Assembly (NCBI RefSeq): GCF_900232105.1
Contig: NZ_LT934425.1
Location: 2,010,001 to 2,042,000 of the forward strand
Length of the DNA stretch: 32,000 bases
Direction: 5' to 3'
Source: Candidatus Kuenenia stuttgartensis
Lineage (GTDB): Bacteria > Planctomycetota > Brocadiia > Brocadiales > Brocadiaceae
In this document: positions 5,140-32,000 of the stretch, in pieces
Numbering within the stretch: position 1 is the first letter of the stretch
Layout of the letters: every line of letters begins with the position of its first letter
Notes under the pieces: generated by a model
The model's database searches: none
Told to the model about the DNA's origin: nothing
The model's input: only the letters and a program-made list of their open reading frames with translations
Made by a program: the position numbers and the translations under genes

Positions 5140-7557
5140 TTATCCTTTTTTTGGCTCTTCTGCGCCGAAAACAATTGGCAGCATTTCATCTACCCTTTCT
5201 ACAAATGCGAAATTCAATCTTTTTTTTGCATTTTCAGGAACTTCGGTTAAATCTTTCTCATTTCTCTTCGGTAAGACAACCGTTGTAATCCCTGCCCTCT
5301 TGGCTGCCAGTACCTTTTCTTTTATGCCTCCAACGGGTAGAACCCTTCCGCGCAGCGTGATTTCGCCCGTCATTGCCACATTAGAGAGGATTGGCGTCCC
5401 TTTCAAAAGTGAGATAAGCGCCATAGCCATTGTTACTCCGGCAGAAGGTCCGTCTTTTGGAATAGCTCCCGCAGGAACATGAATGTGAAAGTCGTATTTA
5501 TCAAAATCCTTAAATGAAATCTTCAGGCTTTCGAGTTTTGACCTGATATAGCTCATTGCTGCCTGGGCAGATTCTTTCATAATATCCCCTAAACATCCGG
5601 TCAGGGTGAGTTTCCCAGTGCCTGGCATAAAAGTCGCCTCAATAAAAAGTATGTCTCCGCCGGCCTGCGTCCACGCGAGACCGGTGGCAACTCCGGCGTC
5701 AGTGGTTCGTTCCGCCGCCTCAGAGAAAAACTTGATTGGCCCTAGAAGCGTATTTAATTGTTCCGCATTTATGGTTACCGACGTCTCTTCTCCGGAAGCG
5801 ATTTTCTTCGCCGTTTTCCTGCAAAGGTGTGCGATTTCACGCTCCAGGTTTCTCAATCCTGCCTCCCGTGTGTAATCAGTGATTACCATCTTTATTGCAT
5901 CGTCTGTAATCGTTAGCTGCTCCTCCTTGAGGCCGTGGGCTTTTAGCTGCTTGGGAAGGATGAATTTTTTCACGATGGATATTTTTTCTTCCGCAGTATA
6001 TCCTGAAAGTTCCAACACCTCCATACGATCTTTCAGTGCAGGCGGTACCGTATCTAATATGTTTGCGGTGGTGATAAACATTACATTTGAAAGGTCAAAC
6101 GCTACGTCGAGATAATGGTCGGAAAAGGCATGGTTTTGTTCAGGGTCAAGCACTTCCAGCAAGGCGGCTGAGGGGTCTCCGCGGAAATCAGCGCCAAGTT
6201 TGTCAATTTCGTCCAGCATGAATACCGGATTGTTTGATTCCGCCTTTTTCAGTCCCTGTATGATCCTGCCCGGCAATGCACCGATATATGTGCGCCTGTG
6301 ACCCCTTATCTCCGCCTCGTCTCTTACTCCGCCCAGGGACATACGGACAAATTTCCTGCCCATCGAACGTGCAATTGACATCCCAACAGAGGTTTTCCCT
6401 GTGCCGGGCGGTCCGACAAAGCACAAGATCGGCCCCTTCATATCATCCTTGAGTTTCCTTACCGCAAGATATTCAAGGATCCGTTCCTTTAATTTTTCTA
6501 AATCGTAGTGATCTTCATCCAATATTGTGCTTGCCGTTTTAATATCCAGTTGGTCTTTTGTAGAAACCGACCATGGAAGGGCAATCAACAGATCCAGGTA
6601 TGTCCTTGAAACCGTATATTCCGCCGAAGCAGAATGCATTTTTGCAAGCCGTTCAAGCTCTCGTTCGGCCTCTTTTTTTGCTTCGGCAGGCATTTTGGCA
6701 TTTTCGATTTTTTCCTTTAATTCTTTTATCTCCATTGAACGTTCGTCGCCTTCGCCCAGTTCATCCTGAATCGCCTTTAGCTGCTGCCTCAGATAATATT
6801 CCTTCTGTCCCTTTTCCATTTCGTTCCTTACCTGAGACTGGATTTTTGTAGCCATTTCCAGGACTTCCAATTCGCTGGCAATCAGTGTAGTAACTTTTTG
6901 CAAACGCAATTTTACGTTTGCCAGTTCAAGCACCTTTTGTTTTTCCGCCACGCTAACATTTAAATGCGAAGTAATAAGATCCGCTAAACGGCTGGGATTT
7001 TCAATATTAACGACAGCTATCTTCAATTCTTCGGGCAGTGATGGCATCATGGAGATCATGTGCGCAAATTGGTCCGCCGCATTTCTTGCCAGTGCCTCTG
7101 TCTCTCTATCGTCTTCAATGATATCTTCGATAGCGCTGATTTTTGCTTTAAAATAAGGATCGGATTGAACGTATTCCCCGATTTTTACCCTGCGAAGTCC
7201 CTGGACAAGCATTTTTGCAGAATTATCGGGCATGCGCAGCATTTGAAGAACGACAGCCGCCGTGGCGCACTCATAGATATCGGATTGTTTTAGCACTTTA
7301 ATATCTTTATCTTTCTGCGCGGTCAGGGTCAGGAATCGGTTCCCGGCTAAAACATCGTTCAGGAGTTTAATATCCCTATCGGTATAAACGCTTAACGCCG
7401 CGACCATTCCCGGGAATACAACGGTGTCTTTCACTGGAAGCACAGGGGTTTCATGTGGTATTTTTATTCTTTCTATTTTGTCCTGTACTTCTTCTTCAAC
7501 CGTAAGTACAGGATGCTCCTGGTCTTCGCCATGGTTATTATTTTCGCTATTTGTCAT
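5140..7557 (-). CDS. lon: ATP-dependent Lon protease (La)
   Basis: 805 aa. Lon N-terminal domain, Walker A GPPGTGKTS, catalytic-serine motif PKDGPSAGV. Confidence 0.97.
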   Translation of the reverse strand: MTNSENNNHGEDQEHPVLTVEEEVQDKIERIKIPHETPVLPVKDTVVFPGMVAALSVYTDRDIKLLNDVLAGNRFLTLTAQKDKDIKVLKQSDIYECATAAVVLQMLRMPDNSAKMLVQGLRRVKIGEYVQSDPYFKAKISAIEDIIEDDRETEALARNAADQFAHMISMMPSLPEELKIAVVNIENPSRLADLITSHLNVSVAEKQKVLELANVKLRLQKVTTLIASELEVLEMATKIQSQVRNEMEKGQKEYYLRQQLKAIQDELGEGDERSMEIKELKEKIENAKMPAEAKKEAERELERLAKMHSASAEYTVSRTYLDLLIALPWSVSTKDQLDIKTASTILDEDHYDLEKLKERILEYLAVRKLKDDMKGPILCFVGPPGTGKTSVGMSIARSMGRKFVRMSLGGVRDEAEIRGHRRTYIGALPGRIIQGLKKAESNNPVFMLDEIDKLGADFRGDPSAALLEVLDPEQNHAFSDHYLDVAFDLSNVMFITTANILDTVPPALKDRMEVLELSGYTAEEKISIVKKFILPKQLKAHGLKEEQLTITDDAIKMVITDYTREAGLRNLEREIAHLCRKTAKKIASGEETSVTINAEQLNTLLGPIKFFSEAAERTTDAGVATGLAWTQAGGDILFIEATFMPGTGKLTLTGCLGDIMKESAQAAMSYIRSKLESLKISFKDFDKYDFHIHVPAGAIPKDGPSAGVTMAMALISLLKGTPILSNVAMTGEITLRGRVLPVGGIKEKVLAAKRAGITTVVLPKRNEKDLTEVPENAKKRLNFAFVERVDEMLPIVFGAEEPKKG

Positions 7558-12992: not shown

Positions 12993-13034
12993 TTTATAAA
13001 GGATGTTATCCGCCTTGCCTACACATTTAAGAAA

Positions 13035-13107
13035 GCAGGGGCGAGGCACTTGCCCGTTTGGGCATGAGCACATTTATGACAATTTACGGCAAGTGCCTCG
13101 CCCCTGC
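13035..13107. repeat. Family A palindromic element (about 70 bp hairpin)
   Basis: Perfect 20-bp arms gcaggggcgaggcacttgcc (13035-13054) / ggcaagtgcctcgcccctgc (13088-13107). The loop contains gtttgggcatgagcacat. Confidence 0.9.
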
Positions 13108-13121
13108 TTTGCGATTATTGG

Positions 13122-13146
13122 AATTTTTCAAAAACTAAAATGTTAC
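13122..13146 (+). repeat. Copy of the 24-25-nt AT-rich motif (plus orientation)
   Basis: aatttttcaaaaactaaaatgttac, 14 nt after the family A element. Confidence 0.7.
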
Positions 13147-13737
13147 CTATAAAAATAAAGATACGTAATCGGGTTTTTTGGGCCTTAATCGTGACCGTTA
13201 TAAGACACAAGGAAGGTAAAATTATATACAATACGCATATTTATGAGAAGAAAAAAAGACGGCATTTGAACAGTGTAAAGGGTGTCTGGCAGATACTTTC
13301 TATTGAAAAGCCCTAGTGTGTACTTTATAATCGATTCATTAATATTTGCAACAGTTTTCCGATAACCAAAAATGGAAACATGTTGTAATCATTAAAAATC
13401 GCATATCTTTGATAAGAAACAGGTGCTCAGGTTGCAAGGAATTAATAACAAGTACACAATACTTAATTTAGCAATAAAGGATTTGGGGTTAAGCGCCTTC
13501 ACAAACTTCATCGGTATTAATCTGCGTTTTTTTACGGAAAATACCCTAAACGCATTTATCTTTTTTAATATTATCCAGGCGGATGACCCCGCAAACAGGT
13601 ATGATATACATACCCCAAGCCCCCCCGATATAGCCGGAGATGCAGCAACCATAATTACCCTTACTATCGCGTACCTTTTTTTTACGTCCTATAACGTAAG
13701 AAATGCGCTCAACGTCACAATCCGCAATAATAATAAA

Positions 13738-14199
13738 ATGGATGCGCAGTACATTAAAGCGGTCAAACATTTAGAAGCGTGTTACCGATGGGTAAAAAAC
13801 TTTTTTTTGGTAACCGTGGCAGGTTTTGGAGTATATCTTTTTTCGAAATATGTATTGTCAACGGGAATCGACGTGGTCTTTGTTGAAGGCAATGCTATTT
13901 CAAATATTTTAGGCATCGTAAGCTGTCTTCTCCAAATCTGTTACCCCTTTATCTTTGTTTATGTATATTGTAAATATGTATTCGCAAATACGGCTATTGC
14001 CCTGTTGTTCTATACTTTTTTCTTTATAAGGAATCTTTTTGCGACGGGTTTGCTGGGATTTGTTACTTATTATGATCTGCATGTAGTTGCCCCTTTTTTA
14101 GATTGGCTGACGATTCTTATACTATTATATTCCATAGGCTGCATAATGCTGCATCATCGCGCCTCTAAATTGTTTCATAAAATTGAATTTAAGGGATGA
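13738..14199 (+). CDS. Hypothetical small integral membrane protein (about 153 aa, about 4 TM)
   Basis: Only the hydrophobic C-terminal two thirds of tracked ORF 13423-14199 looks protein-like. No Shine-Dalgarno and no recognisable family. Confidence 0.35.
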   Translation: MDAQYIKAVKHLEACYRWVKNFFLVTVAGFGVYLFSKYVLSTGIDVVFVEGNAISNILGIVSCLLQICYPFIFVYVYCKYVFANTAIALLFYTFFFIRNLFATGLLGFVTYYDLHVVAPFLDWLTILILLYSIGCIMLHHRASKLFHKIEFKG

Positions 14200-14201
14200 C
14201 A

Positions 14202-14338
14202 GGTTTACAACCTGAACCCATAGTTTTATGTTTAGGAATTTCAATATTTTCAGTTAAATAATGAACAAACCCACCCCTCAATCCCCTCCCAAGAGAGGAC
14301 TTATAAAATTCCCCTCTTGAGAGGGGTCGGAGGTGGGT
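14202..14338. repeat. Family E: 18-mer ggtttacaacctgaaccc plus a C-run/G-run palindromic element
   Basis: The 18-mer at 14202-14219 recurs at 22213-22230 (17/18 identity, both preceded by atgaca). 14269-14338 has acccacc...ggtgggt outer arms and a cccctc/gagggg inner hairpin. Confidence 0.65.
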
Positions 14339-14409
14339 AAAAATGAATGCCGTTGGGTTTTTGGCTTTTCAAACCTTAGCCTAACGTAACCATAGGAGGT
14401 ATTTTTCAG

Positions 14410-17400
14410 TTGAAAACCTTAAAAAAGTACATCATTAAAGTTGTTGTATGCGTAGCAATGTGTTTGCTGTGGACGTCACTGTGTATACAGGCACAGGACC
14501 AAACCGTTGCCGTTGAGAAAAAAGCAGATGAGATTAAACTAGCGGGACAGCGTACGACAATAAAAAACGAAGATCTTGAAAAGGCGAAAAATAGACTCGA
14601 AGAAATAAAGGTCAGCGCAGAAAAGACTATTGCTGAAAATGAAACGGCAATTTTGAAATTGCAAAGCGATCGGGAATCAACATCTTCCTACCTTAAAAAA
14701 TTAACGGAAGAAAAAAATACCTATCCGGCAGAAGAACCGCATGTGAAATATTTGGAATTGTTAGACAAAGAGATCGGCATCCTAAAAGAAAAAATTGACG
14801 CGGGCAATGAGCAATTAGAAGAGTGCGAGGATCTCATCGCAGCACTTCAGCATCAGGTAAAGACATATGCAAATTACGTTTCATTATTAACCTCGGCGTT
14901 AAAGTTAAATGAAACAATTGCAGCAACCCCTGCCGACCAGGCGGCGCTTGTCAGACAGGAAGCTGAGATTGCAAAGGGATATATCAAAGCGGCGCAGGCA
15001 AGCATGAAAGAAAAAGAATCATTAATTGCCATTGCTACAAAAGAATTGGAGGATTACAGGCTTAAAGCGCCCGTTATCATGCAAGGGCTTGTTAAGGTGC
15101 TGGAGTCATTGAAGGCGGATACTGCCGGCAGTAAATTGGAAAGTCTGGTGCAGGAAAAGATAAACAATGTTTTGTTCTGGCAAAAGGAGGTAAGCAATCT
15201 ATGGATTTCAATATTAAAAAAAAGACTGACGATAGCAAAAATTCAATATGATGAAGCAATTCAGGCGCTAAAGTCTGCAGAATTCAACGCGGAGTTATTG
15301 GCAGAAAAAGCCGGCCTTTTGGAGGAAAAGCAGAAAACAGAAGAATTGAAAAGAAAACAGGAAGAGCTGGCGTACGCAAAAAAGGTTGAAGAAGTTACAA
15401 AAAAGGCTGCGGAGGTCACCCGGGCAGAGACGGAAAAAACCATACAGGAGGCTGCTAAGAAAGGAGAAGAAATTGTTCAGGAGCAAATGATAACCACCTC
15501 CCCAGAAAAAAAGAGGGTGCTGGAATTAGAGGCGGAAGTCTACAAACAGAACGGTATGGTGGCAAAAATGAAGGACGCACTTATTACGGAAGGCGCACAG
15601 CGATATAAAGGGCGTACCGAACTTAAAAAATTACAGGCAGACATTGGCGTTTTTCTGAGTAAGGGCGCCACGGCAAAAGATATCGAGGAAATGGAAAAGA
15701 AGGTCGCTGCGGAGGAAAAGCGTTATTCAGAGGCGGTCAATTCAGTAAAAAGCCTTATTGTTTCCTTAGATCAGGTGAAGAAACTCCTTTCTGATAAACT
15801 TGCCCTTTCCAGCGAAGAGATGTCAAATATTAAAAAGGAAGTTTCCTCTTTTGCCGATAAGGAATTGGCGCAGCAGGCAATTAATCATGTGGAACAAAGA
15901 ATCAAGGCGCAGGAAGAACAGTTCTCTCTTGTTCTGGAAAGAGTAAATATTTTATATGAACGTCTGGAAATAAGGGAATATGGCATGTCAGTGCTTTCAA
16001 ATGTCAAAGAAAAATTACAACAGATGAAAGCGGCAAACATATGGAAAAGGGATGAAGTGCAGATAACCACCCAAACCTTTGACGTAATTTACCTTGATGT
16101 TATAAACCTTCCTTCAGGTATTCATGCTCTTCTTGAAACAGCAAAGAGCCATATGAAAAACGCAGCGGCATATATTACTCTTGAGAAAAATACGGTTCGT
16201 TTCTGGTTAAGATGCCTTGGATTGGCGTCACTCATAGCATTATTTTATTTTTCCAACCGGTATATACGCCGATGGAGCACAGACACCCTGCAACAGTTGC
16301 ATGAATCAATAACCTTTACCTATTTTAAATCGCGGTTGCTCCCCAGCCTGCTTGTAATACTGGATAAGAGTATTACTGTGCTCTGGGTGGCGGTCCTTTG
16401 CATATTGATACGCGCGTTATTCCCTGTAAAAATACCGTCAACAACTTCAGCGATGTATATACTATTATATATTTCTCTTTATACGGCGCTGAAAGGTTTT
16501 CTTGTGGAGTCTTTCGGTCCGGAAAAGGGACACAGGAAACTCGTTGTTTCACTCGCCTACATATCACCAAAGCATATTTACAAGTCATTAAGCATCATTT
16601 TGCTCTTTTCCCTCATTTCCTTGTCTTTTATTACGGTACTTACCGTATTTCAGTACAAAAGAGACGTTATTGACCTGTTCTGGTTCATCTATCGAATAGG
16701 AATGCTGCTCCTGCTTTTGTGGCTTGCAACCCAAAAATCCCTGTTTTTCAAATTGTTGCCTGGAAAGAACAGCCAGTTGGGAAGGCTCATTCAGCGTATT
16801 ATTGGCATTATTTACCCGGTGTTTGTGGTGTTTGTCGTCTCTCTTTTTGCGATACGCAGTCTGGGATATCCTATATTGACGTATGTACTGCTGAAAACAT
16901 GTATAAAAAGTATAGTTGCCGCAATTATCGCTCTATGGATAGCGAAATTCCTGCTTTACCGGATAAGCAGAATGAGAGAAAGACTTTTTGCGGCGAGAAA
17001 AATAGAAAAGAACACCCCCGAAGAAAAGAAATTTAATGCGGCGACTGCGGCTTACGGTATCTCATTAAACTACGTCGCCTCCATTGTTTGTGCGATAGTT
17101 ATTGTACGGATATGGATGGGAACCTTCCGGGATGCAGTGGATTCTCCCGCCGCGCCCTATCTTATTCAGAAGATTTTTGCACAGGTAGGCATAATTTTCA
17201 GGAGCATTGGCAATGGCCTGTTGTACCGTTTCGTAATGCAGGAGGGAAGGTACACAACGCCGCTGAGAATTATCTTTGCAATACTCGTATTGGTTGCGTT
17301 TTTCTTCCTTGCGCGTTATATAAAAAAATTGATGGAAGAAAGGGTGTTTTCCAGGCTGGGAATGGAACGAGGGCTTAAGCATTCGTTCTCCAACCTTATC

Positions 17401-18132: not shown

Positions 18133-18162
18133 GTAGAGGCGAAGCATCTGCTATAAACGGTT
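18133..18162. repeat. Truncated half-copy of the family A palindromic element
   Basis: gtagaggcgaagcatctgctataaacgg aligns with the left arm plus loop start of the 22255 copy (taggggcgaagtatttgctataactgg). No matching right arm follows. Confidence 0.5.
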
Positions 18163-22018: not shown

Positions 22019-22254
22019 CGGAGCTATTTACCTGTTGAATTTTATTGTGCTACAAACAGACCGCCTCTAAAGGGGCTACATTGTTTTTTATGTCCCCTTG
22101 GATTTTTCAAATAACTAAGGTGCTATGAATTATTTGATCAAAAACAACCCCCCCCTTTTTTCCCCTTTATTAAGGGGGACTTTTGCGGCCGTTTGCTTAA
22201 CTTAATGACATTGGTTTGCAACCTGAACCCGCCGGGAATGTTTGCCGCACGGTA

Positions 22255-22323
22255 TAGGGGCGAAGTATTTGCTATAACTGGTATAATGCGTTCATGCCCA
22301 AACACGCAAATGCTTCGCCCCTA
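22255..22323. repeat. Family A palindromic element, loop inverted relative to copies 13035 and 27607
   Basis: Arms taggggcgaagtatttgc / gcaaatgcttcgccccta (one T-G mismatch). The loop contains gcgttcatgcccaaacac, the reverse complement of gtgtttgggcatgaacgc. Confidence 0.85.
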
Positions 22324-22379
22324 CGGTTTCAAAATATTAAAGTGTTACTGATTTTTCAAAAAACTAAATTGTTACAAAA

Positions 22380-24869
22380 ATGAGCATTCGGATAAAACTC
22401 ATCTTATTTATAAGCGGAATCATCATTATCATTGATGCCCTCAGTTGCATGTCATTCTTTTTTTACTCAAAAAAGAGATACCGCGTGGAACTGAGGTATT
22501 TTGGAGAGACACTGGTTAATTTGTTTAGCAGGGATAATGAAATACGATATGCCCTGGAATATGAACAGCCATTGCTCTTTGCGTCACCGGTAAGAAGGAT
22601 AAAGGAATTTGACAGGGAAAACGTCGTGTGCTACATCAGCATTTCAAATGACAGGGAAAAGCTCTTTGAAGACAAAGCGACGTGGCTGGATATTGAAACA
22701 AACGAAATCCCCGGGAGGAACCATCAGGACGATACCTCTGATACAGACTACAGGGTAATCACCGTATCCGGGAAAAGATTCTATGAATATTTTACCCCTA
22801 TCCGCGAAAGGCAGGTATTTTCAGGCGAGGGCCTTGCGGAGCAGATACTAAGCGAAGAATCGGTCAACAGGAAAAATATGCCGAAAGGGTTCGTGCAGGT
22901 GCTGTTATCCACCCACAGGTTAGATGAAAAAATACGCAGTGTTATCATATACAGCATTATGCCGGTAGGTATCGGCATTGTTTTTGGAGGTCTCGGCATT
23001 ATGCTGCTTTTGACAAAATATATCGTGTCTCCTTTGCAGCATCTGACGAATGTTACCCTGGAGATAGCCGGAGGAAATCTTGACCGTAAGGTACACGCTT
23101 CCCATAATGATGAAATAGGGCAATTGTGCGATAATTTCAATCAGATGACTGATGCACTGAGAAACTCACACAACCATCTAACCGCCGAAATCGCCGATCA
23201 TAAACGGGCAAAGGAACAGCTTCTGAAATTGTCCCAGGCCGTGGAACAGAGTTTCACGGCAATTGTCATTACCGATGTTGCCTGCGCTATAGAGCATGTT
23301 AATCCCAAGTTTACGGAGGTCACAGGCTATGCACGGGAAGAAGCCCTGGGGAATAAATTATTTGACCTGCTCTTATTCAATATGTCCGACGAAAGACACG
23401 AAAATATTATTACAATGGTGCTTTCCGGTGAAATATGGCGAAAGGAATTGGTTAATAGCAGAAAAGATGGTGAACAATTTTTTGCACAGGTAACCATTTC
23501 TGCAGTGCGGGGCGATGACGGATACATTATAAACTTTATCGGAGTCATAGAGGATATTACCGAAAGAAAGAAGTTTGAGGAGATGCTGGTCGTCATGGCG
23601 GAACACGACCCCCTTACCAACCTCTTTAATCGGCGCCGGTTTCAGGTGGAACTGGAATATTGGCTTGGATACAGCAAACGATACAACACGGGTGGGGCGT
23701 TGTTGTTTCTTGATATTGATAATTTTAAATATATTAATGATACGCTTGGCCATAAGGTGGGCGATGAAATACTGGTCGAGTTTGCAATACTCTTAAAAGA
23801 ACGTGTACGCCCGAACGACATAATTGCCAGGCTTGGCGGCGATGAATTTGCCGTTATTTTGCCCAATACAAACGTTGATCACGCCCGGTCTTTTGCAGAA
23901 CAAATAACACAGTCAGCGCAGAAACATTTCCGGGTGTTGAATGAACGCGGACATAATATTACAACAAGCCTGGGGATAGCGCTTTTCCCCGATCACAGCC
24001 TTGAAGCTGATGCGCTCCTTGCCTGCGCGGATATGGCCATGTATGGCGCAAAAGAGGCGGGCAAGAACCAGTGCTGCATATTTTCCCTTGAACAGAAACA
24101 GAATATCGAATCCAGGTTTTTGTGGGACAAGCGAATTCGTAGTGCTTTGGGAAAAGATGATTTTGAAATATACCTACAACCTATAGTAGATTTGCGGAGT
24201 AACGCTGTATTCGGCTACGAAGCATTGTTGCGAATGGTCGGCGAGAATGGAGAATTGATACCACCTGCCGAATTTCTCCCCTATGCCGAGAGACACGGCT
24301 CCATTCTTGATATTGATCGCTGGGTAGTGCGCAACGCCTTCCGGCTTTTTGTCAGATATAATATGCAGGAGAAAAAAGCAGTGCTCGAAATCAACCTCTC
24401 CGGTAAGGCAATTACCGATTCGGGAATGCTTTCTTTTATTAAAGAGGAGTTGTCCGCATCGCAGGCGGATGCGAGATACATAACATTTGAGGTTACGGAA
24501 AGCGCCGTCGTGGAAAATATAGAGTACGCCCGGTACTTTATGAATGACCTTTGCAACCAGGGTTTCCGGTTTGCGCTTGATGATTTTGGAATCGGATTTT
24601 GTTCGTTTACTTACCTCAAGCATCTTCCGGTAGATTTTCTGAAGATTGACGGAGGTTTTATTCGCAACCTGCCAGACAATCCGACAGATCAATGTTTTGT
24701 AAAGGCAATTGCTGATATCGGAAACGGACTGGAGAAAAAAATTATAGCTGAATTTGTAGAAAACAAACAGACCATTTCCTTGCTTAAGGAGATTGGAGTT
24801 GTCTACGGGCAGGGACACTTTTTCAGCAAGGCACTTTCCGCCTCTGAAATTTTTAAAACCTCCTCCTAA
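22380..24869 (+). CDS. Membrane-bound c-di-GMP signalling protein: periplasmic sensor region-HAMP-PAS-GGDEF-EAL
   Basis: Two TM segments flank an approximately 170-aa periplasmic region. HAMP (SPLQHLTNVTLEIAGGNLD), PAS (FTAIVITD...INPKFTEVTGY). Intact GGDEF (RLGGDEFAVIL) and EAL (FGYEALLRM ... DDFGIGFCSF ... LKIDGGFI) signatures. Confidence 0.92.
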   Translation: MSIRIKLILFISGIIIIIDALSCMSFFFYSKKRYRVELRYFGETLVNLFSRDNEIRYALEYEQPLLFASPVRRIKEFDRENVVCYISISNDREKLFEDKATWLDIETNEIPGRNHQDDTSDTDYRVITVSGKRFYEYFTPIRERQVFSGEGLAEQILSEESVNRKNMPKGFVQVLLSTHRLDEKIRSVIIYSIMPVGIGIVFGGLGIMLLLTKYIVSPLQHLTNVTLEIAGGNLDRKVHASHNDEIGQLCDNFNQMTDALRNSHNHLTAEIADHKRAKEQLLKLSQAVEQSFTAIVITDVACAIEHVNPKFTEVTGYAREEALGNKLFDLLLFNMSDERHENIITMVLSGEIWRKELVNSRKDGEQFFAQVTISAVRGDDGYIINFIGVIEDITERKKFEEMLVVMAEHDPLTNLFNRRRFQVELEYWLGYSKRYNTGGALLFLDIDNFKYINDTLGHKVGDEILVEFAILLKERVRPNDIIARLGGDEFAVILPNTNVDHARSFAEQITQSAQKHFRVLNERGHNITTSLGIALFPDHSLEADALLACADMAMYGAKEAGKNQCCIFSLEQKQNIESRFLWDKRIRSALGKDDFEIYLQPIVDLRSNAVFGYEALLRMVGENGELIPPAEFLPYAERHGSILDIDRWVVRNAFRLFVRYNMQEKKAVLEINLSGKAITDSGMLSFIKEELSASQADARYITFEVTESAVVENIEYARYFMNDLCNQGFRFALDDFGIGFCSFTYLKHLPVDFLKIDGGFIRNLPDNPTDQCFVKAIADIGNGLEKKIIAEFVENKQTISLLKEIGVVYGQGHFFSKALSASEIFKTSS

Positions 24870-24915
24870 CCCACACACTGGGGGGGGAAATGTTAAACTG
24901 GTACATTTGGGAGCT

Positions 24916-24945
24916 CGTAGAGACATGACATGCCATGTCTCTACG
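24916..24945. repeat. Family D hairpin (GTAGAGACA core), 12-bp perfect stem
   Basis: cgtagagacatg-acatgc-catgtctctacg, 47 nt after the EAL gene stop. May act as a terminator stem, but it has no U-tract. Confidence 0.8.
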
Positions 24946-24949
24946 GGCT

Positions 24950-25074
24950 GCAACCAAATTCGAAATACGAATATCGAAATACGAAACAAATTCAAATGAC
25001 CAAAAACCCAATGCTCCAAACTTCCGGTGTTGTTTCATTGGGATTTTGTATTTTGGAATTTGTCTCGTATTTCG
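24950..25074. repeat. Family B repeat, full copy forming a long imperfect hairpin
   Basis: 39-nt arms 24975-25013 and 25036-25074 are complementary at 32/39 positions (hand alignment). Internal tandem duplication of cgaaatacgaa. The left half matches 18221-18280. Confidence 0.8.
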
Positions 25075-25120
25075 TGCTTCGTGTTTAGTATTTTTTATCC
25101 ACAATCATGGTATTGTTATT

Positions 25121-25525
25121 ATGGAAAATTCGCAAAAACAGCCAAATAAATCTTCACCTGTAAAAAAACAACTTATTATTATCTTTTTTCTTACAACGGC
25201 TTTATTTGCCGGAATTGCAATAAAGGCAGGAAGAGATTACCATTGGTGGTTGCCGGAAACGGAAATCGTAAGCGTTCTTACCCCCGAAGACATAAAAACA
25301 AAAATCGATATTAATGAGTCCCCCTGGTATGAATTGTTATTATTGCCAAAAGTAGGAGAGGCAAAGGCAAAAGCAATTGTTGCCTATCGCGAAAAATATG
25401 GCAGATTTGAAAGCCTGGATGAATTGAGCCGCATCGACGGCATAGGAAAGAAGATAATAGCGTTATTAAAAGATTGCGCGATAGCAGGTACCGGCAGTGC
25501 GCATGTATCAGACAATCATGAATGA
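25121..25525 (+). CDS. ComEA-like helix-hairpin-helix DNA-binding protein
   Basis: N-terminal membrane anchor, then LLLLPKVGEAKAKAIVAYREKYGRFESLDELSRIDGIGKKII (HhH pair). The tracked start 24935 was rejected because that stretch is the family B repeat. Confidence 0.75.
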   Translation: MENSQKQPNKSSPVKKQLIIIFFLTTALFAGIAIKAGRDYHWWLPETEIVSVLTPEDIKTKIDINESPWYELLLLPKVGEAKAKAIVAYREKYGRFESLDELSRIDGIGKKIIALLKDCAIAGTGSAHVSDNHE

Positions 25526-27570: not shown

Positions 27571-27606
27571 TAAAGATCAAACGGCATTTTATCGTAATTT
27601 GATAAC

Positions 27607-27678
27607 GTAGGGGCAAAGCATTTGCCGGTTTAGGCATGAGCGCATGTCTGCCGGTTATCGCAAATGCTTCGCCCCTAC
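27607..27678. repeat. Family A palindromic element between convergent uvrB and the DprA-like gene (possible bidirectional terminator structure)
   Basis: Arms gtaggggcaaagcatttgc / gcaaatgcttcgcccctac, 18/19 paired. The loop contains gtttaggcatgagcgcat. Confidence 0.85.
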
Positions 27679-27747
27679 ATTTTGTTTCCAGACGTAAGCC
27701 AGTGGCTTTAGTCTGATTGAGTATATATGCTTTAAAATCCCAATCTC

Positions 27748-28335
27748 TTATCCAGTTTTAAAGGATGAAATTGTTTTCCCTGTGCGTGAAATGTCCGTAA
27801 TGATCTTTTCAATATTTCCACACGGTAAGGCATAGGCGATAAATATTTCATCCGCCAGTTCTGCCATTAAGTGGTTCCTCTGGTTGGCCGTTTCTCTGGT
27901 AACTCGTTTAACCTTTTCATCAAATGGTGTAGCGATCAACAGTCTGTTTTTATCCAGGGCATCCTTTAATTCGGGCTCTAGTCTCTTTTTAAGACCTCTT
28001 GCCAGTGCAAGGATGATGGGCTGTGCGCCTTTGAGCAGGTAATGCAACACATCTTTCTCTATTTTGGAATGAAAACCTGATATGACACAAACGCCTTTTT
28101 CCCTTTGTGCAATTGCCCAGTCATACGATTTGAGGATGATATCAGCCGGGCATTTGCGGGAACATAAGAAGGCGATTTTGTGGTCTTTAAGTATCTGCTT
28201 ATTCCCCATATAATTTATATTGTTTTGTGATAGGGGCGAAGCATTTTCCATGACAATGCCCGGAAGCGGTTTAATGGGCAAGGAAAATGCTTTGCCCCTA
28301 CAGGCATCGTTTTGATTATTATTTGTTGTCGCCAT
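27748..28335 (-). CDS. DprA-like (Smf/DprA-LOG, SLOG-type Rossmann) protein, short form
   Basis: IAFLCSRKCP...VISGFHSKIEKDVLHYLL...IILALARGL...QRNHLMAELADEIFIA parallels the DprA Rossmann-domain pattern (GSR..., SGxAxGID..H, RNRxIA). ATG 28335 has GGGGA 7 nt upstream, but codons 11-35 are encoded by a family A repeat. Alternative start at ATG 28209. Confidence 0.6.
   Translation of the reverse strand: MATTNNNQNDACRGKAFSLPIKPLPGIVMENASPLSQNNINYMGNKQILKDHKIAFLCSRKCPADIILKSYDWAIAQREKGVCVISGFHSKIEKDVLHYLLKGAQPIILALARGLKKRLEPELKDALDKNRLLIATPFDEKVKRVTRETANQRNHLMAELADEIFIAYALPCGNIEKIITDISRTGKTISSFKTG
28231..28300. repeat. Family A palindromic element (divergent copy) inside the 5' part of the DprA-like ORF
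   Basis: Arms taggggcgaagcattttcc / ggaaaatgctttgccccta, 18/19 paired. Confidence 0.8.
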
Positions 28336-28458
28336 TATTATGTCCCCTGCGGTATTTGATGTCGTAGTTCCGTAAGTATTACCCCATTGATTCTTAATGC
28401 AGAGAGCAGGTTAGTATTTTGTTCTTCTTTTGGGATGCAGTTATTTCTTTTTCAATTC

Positions 28459-28809
28459 TTAATCGGGATAGGCAATTCTTTTTGCTGATTTGGCAAGCAC
28501 TCGCGATATCTTTTTAGTAATTTCGCCCTTTATCAAGGCGTGGGCATAGTTGGCGGGTTGCGGGTCATGCACACATTCTAGCCCCAATTCTCTTGGTTGT
28601 TGTGCTTTTAGATAATACAACCTAAATCTGTGTATATCTTGAATACTATCCTCGTAGGAGGTTAATCTTTCAACGTTTACAGAAAGGCCATACTCTCCTT
28701 TTTTTAATTGAAATGCACATGAGGTAAGCGTGCCATCATCCCTTACATAATTAGGATCAATAAAGGGAACTCTTCTCAGCAGATTATCATTATCCAGTAT
28801 GGCTTCCAT
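28459..28809 (-). CDS. Hypothetical 116-aa protein (third gene of the coupled triad; possible toxin/effector)
   Basis: Start in a TAATG overlap with the upstream gene. Features LLRRVPF...GLSVNVE...NYAHALIKG. I can name no family. Confidence 0.6.
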   Translation of the reverse strand: MEAILDNDNLLRRVPFIDPNYVRDDGTLTSCAFQLKKGEYGLSVNVERLTSYEDSIQDIHRFRLYYLKAQQPRELGLECVHDPQPANYAHALIKGEITKKISRVLAKSAKRIAYPD

Positions 28810-29282
28810 TAAAACAGTTCAAGTATTTGAGGCAATAAATGATCAAGCGCACCCTCTGAAATACAGGCATCGCCCTCATAAATCAAAACCTCATTTGAAT
28901 TATCGGCATTGAAATATACTTCAGCCTCGTAATTTCCTTTTCTAAGCTCTACCACAATTTCCCCATTAGGTCCTGGAGCAACAAAGTAAACCGGAATTCC
29001 ATGCGCATCAATGACTCTTATAAATGATAATGCATTAACAATGGCGCTTTCTGAAGGTTTTTCAGCTCCATAACTATCCCAATTATCTGCAAAATTTCTA
29101 AAACCTAAAATTTTTGAGGTAGCCTTCATGGCTGCATTACTTAATGAAGGCGTTTGTGGATAAATGTCTATAACAATGCTCGTATTCCATTCCTGTTGTT
29201 CGGTTTCGAATGCTTCTGAAAGATAAATAGAAGAGCTTGCGCAACGTTTTCTATATGGAGACGCTTCTTGTAAAGCTGTCAT
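28809..29282 (-). CDS. Hypothetical 157-aa protein with NWDSYGA motif (second gene of the coupled triad)
   Basis: ATG 29282 is preceded by AAGGGGGAAG. It overlaps the end of the upstream gene by 32 nt. I can name no family. Confidence 0.6.
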   Translation of the reverse strand: MTALQEASPYRKRCASSSIYLSEAFETEQQEWNTSIVIDIYPQTPSLSNAAMKATSKILGFRNFADNWDSYGAEKPSESAIVNALSFIRVIDAHGIPVYFVAPGPNGEIVVELRKGNYEAEVYFNADNSNEVLIYEGDACISEGALDHLLPQILELF

Positions 29283-30042
29283 AAAACTTCCCCCTTGTCA
29301 TTTCTTTAAATAACGGTGAAATAATCTCGTGTGCATGTGTGCACCATTTCGTCATTTCATTTCTAGTAAACCTGCCTTTTTTGACAATTGCTGTTTGCCA
29401 AACCAGTGTGGGATCATGGGTTTTTTTATCACTGCCTGTTGTTACGTTAATGTGCAAAGCAGACCCATCTTTTAACCCGAATGTTTGATTCAGGTTCAGA
29501 CCTTCCATCGGACCGAGTGTGTCAAAATGGTTATGCAGTTCTATTTTCAGTGAATCATGTATAAAGGGTAATAAATTATCTTTGACGGTTACTTGATAAT
29601 CTTTCAATTTTACAGCATCAATGTAGCGTAGGCTGCAAAAATTCAGGTTTATTTTTTGATTATATGCCTCAAATAGCTTATTGGTAGATTCTAAAATCAG
29701 TGGGAAAAAGGTATCCTTCCAACAATACTTTTTGTCGGTATCATTTACTGTAAAAATCCCGGGACCCAATTGCAGTACGGGCCAAATATCTTCACCTTTC
29801 CAAAACTGATAGATAACGGAATAGTTTAGTAAATCTGTTGGAAAATCATCGGGAATTTTACGTACTATGTGAGGAAAATCATTTTTTAGCAAGGTGGCCA
29901 ATGTTCCTAAAGCAATAGCAAAACCCTCATCAAATTCCCGATTGCTGTCCGGATTTATATTTAAATCCCAGCGAATTTCAAATATCACTTCTTGTAAGGG
30001 TGCGTTAGGGAGTTTTTCGATATGTTCGTTATTCGATATCAT
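29251..30042 (-). CDS. TIGR04255-like uncharacterised protein (263 aa)
   Basis: N-terminus ...KLPNAPLQEVIFEIRWDL resembles the signature I associate with the function-unknown TIGR04255 family, and the length (about 260 aa) fits. The assignment is from memory and was not searched. Confidence 0.6.
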   Translation of the reverse strand: MISNNEHIEKLPNAPLQEVIFEIRWDLNINPDSNREFDEGFAIALGTLATLLKNDFPHIVRKIPDDFPTDLLNYSVIYQFWKGEDIWPVLQLGPGIFTVNDTDKKYCWKDTFFPLILESTNKLFEAYNQKINLNFCSLRYIDAVKLKDYQVTVKDNLLPFIHDSLKIELHNHFDTLGPMEGLNLNQTFGLKDGSALHINVTTGSDKKTHDPTLVWQTAIVKKGRFTRNEMTKWCTHAHEIISPLFKEMTRGKFYDSFTRSVSI

Positions 30043-30072
30043 ATTTTATTAATAATACGATTTATTTGTTAA

Positions 30073-30096
30073 TATAGGAATAGGGCTATTCCTATA
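30073..30096. promoter_or_regulatory. Perfect 10-bp-stem palindrome 31 nt upstream of the triad start codon (candidate operator or 5' hairpin)
   Basis: tataggaata-gggc-tattcctata inside a 340-bp AT-rich gap. Confidence 0.3.
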
Positions 30097-30234
30097 GATT
30101 TATTGATCTTATACATTGTTTAACCTGAAATCAAGGATTGAGTATTGAAGAGAAATTAAAAAAAACACAAAAGCAAAAATCAATTATTACGAAAAATTTG
30201 ATGGAATATTCCAATGAAATAAAACTTATTCTTT

Positions 30235-30258
30235 GTCTTCGTCTTCGTCTTCGTCTTC
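30235..30258. repeat. Tandem hexamer (gtcttc) x 4
   Basis: Read directly from the sequence. The minus strand would encode EDEDEDED inside a 15-codon ORF. Confidence 0.9.
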
Positions 30259-30381
30259 AAGTTCTTTGCCCATGCGGTATTAATATCATAGTTGATACCT
30301 TGTCCTGAGCCAAGCCGAAGGAATGAAGTCTAATTCCTCATCGGTGAAACCGTAGTGGCGAGCTAAACCGCAAACAAGCTG

Positions 30382-30570
30382 TTATTTAATGGAATGCGCC
30401 AATTCAATTTTAGAAAATGCTTTCATTAACATTCCTTCTATGTTTACAATGAACAATCCCATGGCAAAAGAAGTCCGTTGGGCTTTGGCACAAGTTTTTT
30501 GCAACGTGTTATCTGCCGGTGCAAACACATTTTCTAATAGAAGGACAAATTTATAATCTTCCGACCACAT
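30382..30570 (-). CDS. Hypothetical 62-aa ORF
   Basis: ORF only. Weak ribosome-binding site, no recognisable family; could be a gene remnant. Confidence 0.25.
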   Translation of the reverse strand: MWSEDYKFVLLLENVFAPADNTLQKTCAKAQRTSFAMGLFIVNIEGMLMKAFSKIELAHSIK

Positions 30571-30578
30571 ATCGTCTT

Positions 30579-30809
30579 CTAGTTTTCCCTCCTAAAATTA
30601 TCCTCAATCTCATTTAGTCTTTCCCGGCACTGATTTATCATGTGTAAAACACATTTAGTACAGTAGAAAGAATCCTTGTACATACCATCTTTGACCTTAA
30701 GAACGAGTTGACCCTTCTGGATAGAATGGGCATCATCGTGATAGCATTTTCGCTTTCTGCCAGCGACATCAACCGAATGAGTCTTAAGCATGCTTTTGTA
30801 TTTTGCCAT
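30579..30809 (-). CDS. Hypothetical 76-aa basic Cys/His-containing protein, coupled to the helicase
   Basis: ATG 30809 lies 1 nt after the helicase TGA (30813-30811) and is preceded by GGAAGGT. Contains RKRKCYHDDAH...FYCTKC (possible zinc site). The tracked start 30944 was rejected because it overlaps the helicase. Confidence 0.5.
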   Translation of the reverse strand: MAKYKSMLKTHSVDVAGRKRKCYHDDAHSIQKGQLVLKVKDGMYKDSFYCTKCVLHMINQCRERLNEIEDNFRREN

Positions 30810-30810
30810 T

Positions 30811-32000
30811 TCAGTTACCTTCCATTTTTTTTCTAATTTCAGACACCAGTTTATCAATAATTTCATCCATGTTGTCATGAGCATTTTTGAGTTGGTTTTC
30901 CGTGAGTAAATCTCGTTCCCGTGAGCAAACATGCAAGTATTCAAGGACTGCTCTATTAATTAAAATTATTGCCGCCGGAAGATTAGCAGATGCAGTTGTT
31001 GATGGAAAATGCTTTGGGAGGTCTAATCCACCAATCTTCAACTGAAGTTCATTTAATAGTTGCTTTGCTGCAGAACGTACTCTCTCATCAAGACGCCGCC
31101 TTGCTGCCTTTCTCGCTTCTTGTGGGGACACCTGAAGTTTACTGAGAGTTCCTCTTTTTTGTGCTTGTAAGTATGATTGCATGAGCTTAGTCTCTAATTC
31201 CTCACGAGACAAACCAAAAACTTCAAAATCAATCCCTCGCATTTGCATTGTCTGAATTAAGTCCTCGACAGCTATTCTGGTGTCTTCTGGTACAAAATGA
31301 TCCTGAACAAAATGTACGATGGCCTCTTCAATTACCTCCATTTCAGGTCTGAAGCGTTTGCGACTTGGAGCAGGGTCTTTTTCACTGCTTTTATGAAGAA
31401 TGAACTCATGCTTACCAAATGCAAGTTCTGCAAAGAATGCCTCATCATCTTGGTCAAATTCCTTTAACTCATTCCACCACCGGTCAACATTGAGGCCAAC
31501 ATGAGAAACAACAAAACCACGATTAGCTGGATGACCAGGAGCGTTTTGTTTAATAACACGCATTACACGACCCACGAATTGAACGTATGGCATCAAATGC
31601 CTGTAAGGCCTGAATATCGCAGCTACGCTTAAGTTTGGATAATCTGCACCTTCACCAAGCATTTGGACTTGTACTATTGCATCAATACTTTTTGTTTGTA
31701 GCTTATTTCTAACCTTATATTGTTCTTCTTCTGGCAGATTACTGTGTATAATTTCTGTTCGAATGTTCCTCTCGGTGTATAAAGCCCTAATTGAATTTGC
31801 ATGGTCAATTGAGCATGCAACGGCTATTATTTGGTGCACTTCCCCACTTTCTTTCAATTCTTGCAGGCTTTGGATGGAAGCATCAACAATGCTTTCGTTA
31901 CATTCACGAGACAGTGCTACGCCTTTACTAAACCAATCTTTTTCCCGTAACATCAGGACGTCGTTTAGCCCAACTTTTCGGTTCTCGCCTTTGTAGGTAA
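30811..32000 (-). CDS. SF2 helicase (ResIII/DEAD-like family), C-terminal portion; N-terminus lies right of the window
   Basis: Frame open to the window edge (...TYKGENRKVGLNDVLMLREK...). Helicase C-terminal motifs QMLGEGADYP (V) and QFVGRVMR (VI). About 230-aa helical C-terminal extension of unknown function. Confidence 0.85.
   Translation of the reverse strand, partial: TYKGENRKVGLNDVLMLREKDWFSKGVALSRECNESIVDASIQSLQELKESGEVHQIIAVACSIDHANSIRALYTERNIRTEIIHSNLPEEEQYKVRNKLQTKSIDAIVQVQMLGEGADYPNLSVAAIFRPYRHLMPYVQFVGRVMRVIKQNAPGHPANRGFVVSHVGLNVDRWWNELKEFDQDDEAFFAELAFGKHEFILHKSSEKDPAPSRKRFRPEMEVIEEAIVHFVQDHFVPEDTRIAVEDLIQTMQMRGIDFEVFGLSREELETKLMQSYLQAQKRGTLSKLQVSPQEARKAARRRLDERVRSAAKQLLNELQLKIGGLDLPKHFPSTTASANLPAAIILINRAVLEYLHVCSRERDLLTENQLKNAHDNMDEIIDKLVSEIRKKMEGN

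Follow-up and report, generated by a model that had tools for sequence, protein, structure and literature searches.

A conserved three-gene cassette, probably toxin-antitoxin-like, in a patchwork defence island beside uvrB of Candidatus Kuenenia stuttgartensis

We analysed a stretch of 32,000 nucleotides (nt) of the Candidatus Kuenenia stuttgartensis genome (contig NZ_LT934425.1, positions 2,010,001 to 2,042,000; called the window) and in particular its right-hand end (positions 27748-32000), where seven consecutive minus-strand open reading frames (ORFs) follow uvrB and had been described, in a first-pass annotation made from the sequence, as a candidate defence locus. We conclude with high confidence that the region is a composite island and that it contains a conserved triad of genes encoding a TIGR04255-family protein, a protein of 157 amino acids (aa) called p157 and a protein of 116 aa called p116. 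The triad is probably a toxin-antitoxin-like cassette acting in abortive infection or as a backup to restriction, and our confidence that it serves in defence at all is moderate. All seven ORFs are present where the annotation had placed them, and its statement that no named, validated system matches their content was borne out. The coordinates of all features are collected in Table 1.

To survey the gene neighbourhood, 43 homologues of the TIGR04255 protein were aligned (alignment A1) and one genome per species was scanned, which gave 80 loci to which the window proteins were compared by tblastn and phmmer. The genes for TIGR04255, p157 and p116 occur in this order and on the same strand in about 74 of the 80 loci; the annotation had proposed asking whether any gene pair keeps its synteny across genomes, and the triad does. 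Most loci belong to Bacteroidota, the remainder including Brocadiaceae, other Planctomycetota, Ignavibacteria, Kapaibacterium, Kryptoniota, the gammaproteobacterium Wenzhouxiangella and a metagenome-assembled genome (MAG) of Spirochaetaceae. When the neighbouring ORFs were clustered without supervision, the three triad genes formed the three largest clusters and the only ubiquitous families. Of the other island genes, the helicase, p76, p62 and p186 (see below) were never found beside the triad outside the window strain in these 80 loci, close Brocadiaceae relatives included; only the triad is syntenic, and the earlier treatment of the seven genes as a single locus has to be given up. In the cultured Reichenbachiella faecimaris (L104) the triad stands isolated between enolase and aspS; Echinicola arenosa CAU 1574 (L085) is another cultured carrier. 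From its gene order, the triad behaves as a self-sufficient unit.

The triad genes are tightly coupled, as the annotation had noted: the TIGR04255 and p157 genes overlap by 32 nt, and the stop codon of p157 overlaps the start codon of p116 in the sequence ATGA. Eight Brocadiaceae loci share a strongly conserved stretch of about 110 nt preceding the TIGR04255 start, which includes a near-invariant block with a candidate sigma-70-type promoter, followed just downstream of the predicted -10 element by a dyad that may be an operator. The core of this dyad (GGAATAG...TATTCC) is kept in the eight loci, L010 showing the compensatory change GGGATA/TATCCC. Because promoter block and dyad are both conserved in these loci, the triad probably has its own transcription signals. 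A generic scan for promoters and terminators found promoter-like sites no more often than in shuffled sequences and chose another site (30072-30043), so the promoter assignment is drawn from conservation. With adjacent, co-oriented and coupled small genes and a conserved dyad at the predicted transcription start, the triad has the generic architecture of a Type II toxin-antitoxin system.

The neighbours of the triad tie it to restriction-modification (RM). Hidden Markov models (HMMs) were built from the clusters of neighbouring ORFs, and the clusters of hsdM, hsdS and hsdR were identified by Pfam; RM genes were then searched within 9 kb of the triad in the 35 loci outside Brocadiaceae that are well flanked (no less than 4 kb of upstream and 3.5 kb of downstream sequence). 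Of these 35 loci, 12 have Type I or Type IIG genes, nearly all on the strand of the triad. The recurrent same-strand neighbours are HsdM, HsdS and HsdR, or a Type IIG enzyme together with an HKD-Snf2 protein. In two loci (L050 and L079) the triad is truly embedded in the order hsdR-hsdS-triad-hsdM, several others have hsdR-hsdM-hsdS-triad, and in eight loci (L013, L016, L023, L027, L035, L041, L044 and L084) it directly follows an hsdS or Type IIG gene. Such embedding is the signature by which the PADLOC phage defence candidates (PDC) were defined, namely 'guilt-by-embedding' in BREX, DISARM and Type I systems (Payne et al., 2024, bioRxiv 10.1101/2024.01.29.577857).

One of these candidates, PDC-M32, is related to the triad. 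With the PADLOC HMMs, p116 matches PDC-M32B nearly over its full length (E 5.6e-6, 24.9 bits, profile positions 4-104 of 123), and 38 of 46 p157 relatives match the C-terminus of PDC-M32A (best E 1.8e-7, profile positions about 260-347); the window p157 itself gives E 0.035 and covers profile positions 260-335 alone rather than the full length of about 375 aa. None of 43 TIGR04255 relatives matches PDC-M32A. Since p116 and p157 match M32B and the M32A C-terminus while TIGR04255 does not match M32A, the triad is a distant variant of the predicted PDC-M32 with a different upstream module. Both have an adaptor followed by a small protein, and both are embedded in RM operons. PDC-M32 consists of two genes (A of about 375 aa, B of about 123 aa), whereas the 'A' of the triad is the C-terminal domain behind a variable leader, with the separate TIGR04255 gene in place of the N-terminal part of M32A (about 260 aa); the triad also has, at times, a DprA-like fourth gene beside it. 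The matches, taken from single HMM comparisons and not from the pipeline, are too weak for a sure PADLOC call. A literature search by name returned no paper on 'TIGR04255' and an incidental mention of 'PDC-M32'.

The upstream module is exchanged in further arrangements. A protein called P0199, present in two assemblies, is an HsdS (Methylase_S) with a C-terminal p157 domain and is followed by a p116 homologue of 50% identity; at these loci (L087 1248-3141, L088 217-2110) there is no TIGR04255 gene. On Hymenobacter plasmids, a DUF4209 protein of about 620 aa precedes a p157-like gene (hhalign probability 96.6%) and a p116-like gene (L092 3573-6480, NZ_CP094674.1; L093 3540-6327, NZ_CP006588.1); one of the two plasmids has an MmeI-type enzyme next to the cassette, the other a HipA toxin-antitoxin pair. 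The C-terminus of this DUF4209 protein matches the single-gene candidate PDC-S39, and DUF4209 has been predicted to be an active HEPN RNase in RM-linked operons (PMC3710099). Across these arrangements, p157 and p116 are the constant pair and the upstream module is the variable part. Divergent TIGR04255 genes (29-32% identity) in L083 (4279-5168), L084 (5179-6119) and L086 (10892-11839) precede unrelated partners, a protein of 113-131 aa and one of 181-183 aa with the motifs SQSCDL and PPYREHLSQAFARYFMRVGLP; in L084 this set directly follows hsdM-hsdS.

The smallest triad protein, p116, is also the best conserved one, with 50-65% identity between phyla and near-invariant R12, R13, S30, F33, G41, S43, P83, N87 and H90 among 71 sequences. 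Its AlphaFold model (predicted local distance difference test score, pLDDT, 94) is a small alpha/beta fold in which strand 1 bears R12 and R13, strand 2 bears S43 and one of the late strands bears H90. We take the R-R pair on strand 1 and the serine on strand 2 to resemble the ADP-ribosyltransferases of the R-S-E type. The best structural match of the model, in the PDB as in BFVD, is Tpt1/KptA: Foldseek against the PDB returned more than 20 such chains (E 0.19-1, template modelling (TM) score up to 0.56) as well as DarT, the two together making up about half of the top 50 matches (E 0.19-3, TM 0.33-0.56), and the best named match in BFVD was a phage putative RNA 2'-phosphotransferase (E 0.13). 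Tpt1/KptA are transferases that depend on nicotinamide adenine dinucleotide (NAD) and act on nucleic-acid phosphates; p116 differs in having no Pfam or profile similarity to them and in Foldseek E values above 0.1. Tpt1 is about 180 aa long with a second lobe that binds RNA, and the 116 aa of p116 are too short for both lobes. The predicted fold of p116 thus most resembles the Tpt1/KptA-DarT (ADP-ribosyltransferase-type) class, and we would name a specific chemistry with low to moderate confidence. Profiles of p116, p157 and TIGR04255 run against PDB sequences gave spurious local matches alone (U2A', mevalonate diphosphate decarboxylase and aIF2-alpha), and a viral scan with p116 gave no match.

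Gene decay in the Brocadiaceae falls on p116. Four of seven loci (L007, L008, L011 and L012) have a disrupted p116 gene while TIGR04255 and p157 are intact in all seven: the gene is truncated in L007 (11234-11615) and frameshifted in L008 (11234-12045) and L012 (3413-3759). A crude count of split genes over all loci gave 0 of 74 for p157, about 10 of 72 for p116 and about 6 of 76 for TIGR04255. At L011 (11222-12899), p116 is interrupted by a degenerate ISL3-like element whose ORFs were read by eye. Decay in this family also includes a deletion that fuses p116 to the C-terminus of the DprA-like protein.

The family of p157 is large, with 2025 cluster representatives at E<=1e-3 in a profile search of 1.84 billion proteins. 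Its first 45 aa or so are variable; NWDSYGA and APGPNGE-x-VE are motifs of its conserved core. No relative was found in Pfam or the PDB, and a Pfam scan of every family member gave nothing consistent. Nine phage contigs of IMG/VR carry ORFs with the p157 domain (HMM E 6e-17 to 5e-7), six of them just 77-118 aa long and none with a p116 gene alongside. These solo proteins may be antitoxin mimics or anti-defence genes, and the lack of an accompanying p116 is what one would expect of antitoxin mimics. In L096-L103 the phage ORFs lie near position 6000 (for example 6040-6276 in L096 and 5986-6219 in L098), have the NWDSYGA motif and stand amid small genes which by eye look like early or replication genes. 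In a high-GC viral contig (L095 4616-6417) a TIGR04255-like gene precedes a p157-like one.

Membership of the first triad protein in TIGR04255, proposed in the first-pass annotation, is clear, with 105.5 bits against a cut-off of 30 (E 3.8e-30, profile positions 1-251 of 252). Its AlphaFold model (pLDDT 91) contains a duplicated beta-alpha-beta4-alpha unit, a succession of elements that agrees with the TATA-binding protein domain. The top Foldseek matches are TATA-binding proteins (TBP) at E 3e-4 and probability 0.98, with a TM score of just 0.25-0.37 and a root-mean-square deviation of about 10 A, and helical-grip and SRPBCC proteins come lower in the list; the TBP-like or helical-grip likeness is a weak, topological lead. 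A profile search of the PDB found no relative of TIGR04255, no catalytic fold or motif was recognisable in it, and a viral scan with it gave no match.

We propose that p116 would be the effector, a minimal Tpt1/KptA-DarT-like, NAD-using enzyme carrying R-R...S...N-x-x-H where the classical signature is R-S-E, that p157 would neutralise it or serve as its adaptor, and that TIGR04255 would be an interchangeable sensor or platform module, for which other lineages have a DUF4209/HEPN protein, the N-terminal part of PDC-M32A or an HsdS fused to the p157 domain. A mini DprA-like/SLOG protein is an optional fourth gene. The assignment of a toxic role to p116, and of an indispensable and phage-copied one to p157, comes from the decay of p116, the p157 genes that are never split and the phages that carry p157 alone. 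Among known systems, DarTG comes close in combining a small toxin of the ADP-ribosyltransferase-class fold (predicted here for p116) with a neighbouring neutraliser (predicted for p157) in a defence island; DarT chains are among the structural matches, and an abortive-infection logic would be plausible. Unlike DarTG, the triad has no sequence homology to that system and no macrodomain antitoxin, comprises three genes including the TIGR04255 partner, and has a much smaller toxin candidate (116 aa) whose invariant residues include no glutamate as a possible catalytic residue. CmdTAC, another ADP-ribosyltransferase toxin system, can be likened to the triad in the same way.

Several observations weigh against this proposal. 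The placing of p116 among ADP-ribosyltransferase-like folds is backed by structural scores that are weak (Foldseek E 0.13-1, TM 0.4-0.56); none of 33 family members matches PTS_2-RNA, DarT or another Pfam family, hhalign of the p116 profile with E. coli KptA gives a probability of 0.2%, and the PDB profile search returned no relative of p116. The canonical catalytic glutamate is absent, N87 and H90 being conserved instead. For TIGR04255, the low TM scores count against a TBP-like platform, and the lack of any match leaves it with no tie to the N-terminus of PDC-M32A, which is itself a prediction. About two thirds of the well-flanked loci (23 of 35) have no RM neighbours. Some p116 frameshifts may be errors of MAG or long-read assembly, and in the DUF4209 variant the HEPN RNase is the more obvious effector, so that p116 and p157 could be regulators there.

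The remainder of the island is made of other cassettes. Longer contigs (among them JAVYJT010000608.1), found by looking up the exact TIGR04255 protein and 99.4% identical over 12.8 kb, allowed us to go past position 32000, as had been suggested, and to recover the N-terminus of the helicase and its neighbours: a gene of 186 aa (p186) 3 nt upstream of the helicase, a Type IIG restriction-modification enzyme (PADLOC E 3.5e-298) and, just beyond the window, an HKD+Snf2 protein of 1115 aa. Because these contigs carry the Type IIG enzyme, the HKD+Snf2 protein and the helicase, the region is a genuine defence island, at least 12 kb long and bounded at one end by uvrB; with the matches to PDC-M32 and PsyrA, the earlier description of an accessory, defence-type region is upheld. 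The uvrB gene converges on the island from the opposite strand, and their adjacency is kept within Brocadiaceae. Upstream of the TIGR04255 gene lies a gap of 339 bp with a G+C (GC) content of 0.324, first described as an AT-rich gap of 340 bp with a perfect palindrome. The gap is not empty: besides the promoter and the 11+11-nt dyad described above, it holds what is left of the 3' end of a Type IIG gene, a relic with a frameshift.

This relic records an exchange. The Type IIG gene of the relative L013 is intact and stops exactly at the relic position, directly before the triad; the intact Type IIG gene of the window strain, which lies upstream of p186 and the helicase, is a different allele of about 63% identity. 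As L013 ends its gene at the relic site and the intact allele differs, the block p186-helicase-p76(-p62) with the new allele displaced the old Type IIG gene and left its tail behind; the helicase with p76 (and p186), a plasmid-type module, would thus have arrived together with the new allele. In Brocadia sp. WS118 (L007 5929-9698, PHFX01000009.1) the same relic/triad junction carries genes for proteins of 307 and 949 aa instead of the helicase module. Different cargo at the same site makes the junction a cassette-exchange hot spot, and the island is a patchwork of independent cassettes, not a single system. The 307-aa protein looks SIR2-like by eye, from a GAGVS motif. The ORF of 62 aa (p62) is a doubtful gene, having no homologue and no match in Pfam, NCBIfam, PADLOC or PHROGs and abutting the pseudogene relic.

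The helicase had been called partial, with an unexplained tail; it is cut by the window edge, and the full protein of 728 aa has ResIII, SWI2_SNF2 and Helicase_C domains and a family-specific C-terminal domain of about 240 aa. The tail is conserved in homologues that are 40-42% identical over residues 113-725 and that reside on plasmids of Actinomycetota and Alphaproteobacteria (Mycobacterium, Rhodococcus, Mesorhizobium, Paracoccus and others), 36 of the plasmid homologues being full-length. These are annotated as 'DEAD/DEAH box helicase family protein' of about 680-700 aa (for example WP_265155523.1 of Rhodococcus and WP_258597395.1 of Mesorhizobium); they differ in having an N-terminal helix-turn-helix domain of MerR/excisionase type, read by eye, instead of the N-terminus of the window protein, and in lacking p186. 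The helicase matches PHROG 16 (DNA helicase) at 6e-48, its PADLOC matches are generic (PsyrT at about 1e-3, 15-16 bits), and a metagenome scan with it gave no match. The p76 gene does start 1 nt after the helicase stop, as annotated, and each of the three plasmids inspected has an unannotated ORF of some 80 aa in the corresponding place: it overlaps the helicase stop in L090 (6860-7099) and L091 (6802-7062) and begins about 30 nt beyond it in L089 (6873-7115). One of the three, that of L090, is similar in sequence to p76 (E 1.3e-6). The description of p76 as a Cys/His protein does not extend to a conserved zinc protein, the cysteines not being kept in the plasmid homologues. Because the helicase is never beside the triad elsewhere and is found on plasmids with a p76-like ORF alone, the two form a separate module, independent of the triad. 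A serine recombinase is nearby in two of the plasmid loci (L089 4740-7115, L090 4806-7099, L091 4740-7062) and an IS6 transposase in the third. No family match was found for p186 in PADLOC, Pfam, PHROGs or further searches; a segment '...DYWIG...IEVSG' was considered, by eye alone, as a possible PD-(D/E)xK motif. Hachiman was tried for p186 and the helicase and set aside, with no match to HamA (DUF1837) or HamB in PADLOC.

The ORF next to uvrB, annotated as a short DprA-like protein, has the Rossmann core of that family. Its 195 aa are inflated by a repeat element through which the frame runs up to position 28335; homologues align from residues 40-43 and start at M43, which leaves a protein of 153 aa. 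In relatives (L009, L010 and L013) the spacer between p116 and this gene is about 15-25 nt. The Pfam family DNA_processg_A (PF02481) matches with 30.0 bits against a cut-off of 29.6, over the Rossmann core alone, and the DprA equivalog (TIGR00732) gives 21.8 bits against 191.15, the full architecture being absent. The gene directly follows p116 in the Brocadiaceae where it is intact and in L041, L044 and L051; it lies 4 kb away in L027 and is truncated or frameshifted in L007, L008 and L011. On this distribution it is an occasional fourth gene of the triad. It has the DprA-like/SLOG Rossmann domain in common with PsyrA (PADLOC 1.4e-12, a partial match to profile positions 122-248 of 398). PsyrTA and ShosTA, the systems invoked in the first-pass annotation, were nevertheless rejected: there is no RecQ of the PsyrT type and no ShosT phosphoribosyltransferase partner, the core domain stands alone, the conserved neighbour is p116, and helicase and DprA-like gene are separated by the triad with no synteny elsewhere. 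Neither ShosT nor ShosA was among the PADLOC matches of the seven proteins at E<=0.1.

Against this background the alternatives can be weighed. A more elaborate form of our proposal is a widespread and hitherto unrecognised restriction-guarding immune module. Its transferase, of about 115 aa and the Tpt1/DarT class, would use NAD, have R-R/S/N-x-x-H as a new active site and be kept inactive by the p157 domain, itself docked on swappable platforms (TIGR04255 as a bacterial double TBP-like platform, HsdS or HEPN) and freed when phages attack RM, solo phage p157 proteins acting as decoys; we regard this whole as doubtful. A variant, in which p157 tethers p116 to the RM complex (Type I HsdS/M or Type IIG) and an anti-restriction protein frees p116, as with PrrC-EcoprrI, seems to us about as doubtful. 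It draws on the HsdS::p157 fusion followed by p116 in two independent assemblies and on the triads that sit between hsdS and hsdM or directly after hsdS or Type IIG genes. Like PrrC, an anticodon nuclease in a Type I operon, the triad is an effector cassette nested on the same strand in hsd operons, and the fusion suggests physical coupling to the RM complex; the PrrC precedent is discussed in bioRxiv 10.1101/2024.01.29.577857. The proteins are nevertheless unrelated, with no ABC ATPase or anticodon-nuclease domain in the triad; many triads, that of Reichenbachiella among them, are far from RM genes, the 23 loci mentioned above have no such neighbours, and a single fusion family was seen. It is unlikely that the roles are reversed, with the upstream protein (TIGR04255, DUF4209/HEPN or the N-terminal part of M32A) as effector and p157 and p116 as regulators, p116 silencing it by modification as MNT does for HEPN toxins. 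Transferase-type antitoxins are an established class, and the Hymenobacter partner, a predicted active HEPN RNase of RM-linked operons with a C-terminus like PDC-S39, would suit this; TIGR04255, however, offers no catalytic fold, the HsdS fusion variant has no separate effector besides p116, and it is p116 and not the upstream gene that is preferentially pseudogenised in Brocadiaceae, which fits a toxin better than an antitoxin.

That the triad is a selfish addiction or hitch-hiking module, or cargo, with no anti-phage role and enriched near RM genes by a 'genomic sink' effect, we find slightly less likely still. Patchy distribution, low GC, turnover of cassettes at the site, presence on plasmids and frequent p116 decay would all be in keeping with it, yet the same-strand embedding inside hsd operons and the HsdS fusion exceed co-location, and the solo p157-like genes of phage contigs suggest that the system matters to phages. 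The annotation's own model, one system of seven genes pairing the superfamily 2 (SF2) helicase with the DprA-like protein after the fashion of PsyrTA or ShosTA and including the small proteins, is now very improbable. All genes do lie on one strand and there are the PsyrA match and a weak PsyrT match; the latter is generic (16 bits, and 14.8 with the full-length helicase), neither helicase, p76, p62 nor p186 accompanies the triad or the DprA-like gene in the 80 other loci, the helicase travels with its p76-like ORF on plasmids, and the Type IIG relic and the separate conserved promoter divide the island into two blocks. Least probable of all, to the point that we hardly credit it, is a housekeeping cluster for nucleic-acid repair tied to uvrB, made of a KptA-like enzyme that processes RNA or DNA ends and a DprA-like protein binding single-stranded DNA. 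The uvrB adjacency in Brocadiaceae and the resemblances to Tpt1 and DprA speak for it; against it are the convergent orientation of uvrB, the lack of uvrB linkage outside Brocadiaceae, the DprA-like score far below the equivalog cut-off (21.8 versus 191), the absence of a KptA sequence match, and a sporadic distribution with pseudogenes.

The fall in GC content after uvrB, reported earlier from spot counts as 35-37% against 50-57%, is real but modest, about 5 points: 0.386 for 27748-32000 against 0.438 for 1-27747, with a window mean of 0.431. No other window of 4253 nt falls below 0.399, and approximately 28600-30700 is the poorest 2-kb stretch of the whole window (0.359). A second dip (13000-14500, 0.37-0.38) holds another copy of a palindromic element that resembles repetitive extragenic palindromic (REP) sequences or miniature inverted-repeat transposable elements (MITEs). 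This element is dispersed in the window, its half-site (GTAGGGGCRAAGCATTTKCC) giving 9 matches against 0.01 expected, with the half-sites paired about 50 nt apart in intergenic regions. The palindrome previously taken to close uvrB exists and is one copy of it. Read through, the element yields the peptide '...CRGKAFSLP...ENASPL', and ORF calls such as that of the DprA-like protein are inflated because the frame runs through it. Two genes upstream of uvrB (22380-25525) encode a HAMP-PAS-GGDEF-EAL protein of 829 aa and a ComEA-like HHH_3 protein whose called length is 134 or 196 aa depending on the assembly, which leaves its start uncertain.

Table 1. Features of the window, with positions counted from its first nucleotide.
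Feature	Position	Strand	Basis
REP-like element sites	13035-13107, 18133-18152, 22254-22324, 27607-27678, 28230-28301	no strand	motif scan
REP-like palindrome between uvrB stop and DprA-like gene	27604..27681	no strand	inverted repeat I3, 22-nt arms, 91% complementary
Mini DprA-like/SLOG Rossmann protein, 153 aa from M43	27748..28209	-	homologues align from residues 40-43
Second REP-like palindrome, between p116 and DprA-like gene	28231..28300 (70 nt)	no strand	inverted repeat I1, 27-nt arms
p116, 116 aa, predicted effector	28459..28809	-	PDC-M32B match, AlphaFold model, Foldseek, 71-sequence conservation
p157, 157 aa, predicted adaptor or antitoxin	28809..29282	-	relation to PDC-M32A C-terminus, fusion, phage copies
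TIGR04255-family protein, 263 aa, first triad gene	29251..30042	-	NCBIfam match, AlphaFold model
Dyad TATAGGAATAG-CC-CTATTCCTATA, candidate operator	30073..30096	no strand	11+11 nt, 2-nt spacer; just downstream of predicted -10
Candidate sigma-70-type triad promoter, TTGATT-17 nt-TAAGAT	30106..30134	-	near-invariant block AATCCTTGATTTCAG..TTAAACAATGTATAAGAT in 8 Brocadiaceae loci
Frameshifted relic of Type IIG gene 3' end, LARHYGFTDEELDFI...YRMG	30268..30366	-	tblastn of Type IIG C-terminus, 1.4e-4
p62, 62-aa ORF, doubtful gene	30382..30570	-	same-species contigs only
p76, translationally coupled to helicase	30579..30809	-	starts 1 nt after helicase stop
SF2 helicase, C-terminal 396 codons, running off the window	30811..32000	-	extended contigs, domain matches

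For annotation, the message is that the island is a patchwork in which helicase and triad call for separate interpretation. Should the triad be a working defence system, TIGR04255, a curated NCBIfam family with no Pfam-A match, would gain a function, as would the p157 domain with its more than 2000 cluster representatives. The predicted PDC-M32 would be extended to a modular family of platform, adaptor and mini-transferase, and p116 would represent a compact new scaffold for enzymes that modify nucleic acids or proteins. The HsdS fusion and the solo p157 genes of phages make two further points testable, namely how RM-embedded defences are wired and whether phages neutralise them by antitoxin mimics.

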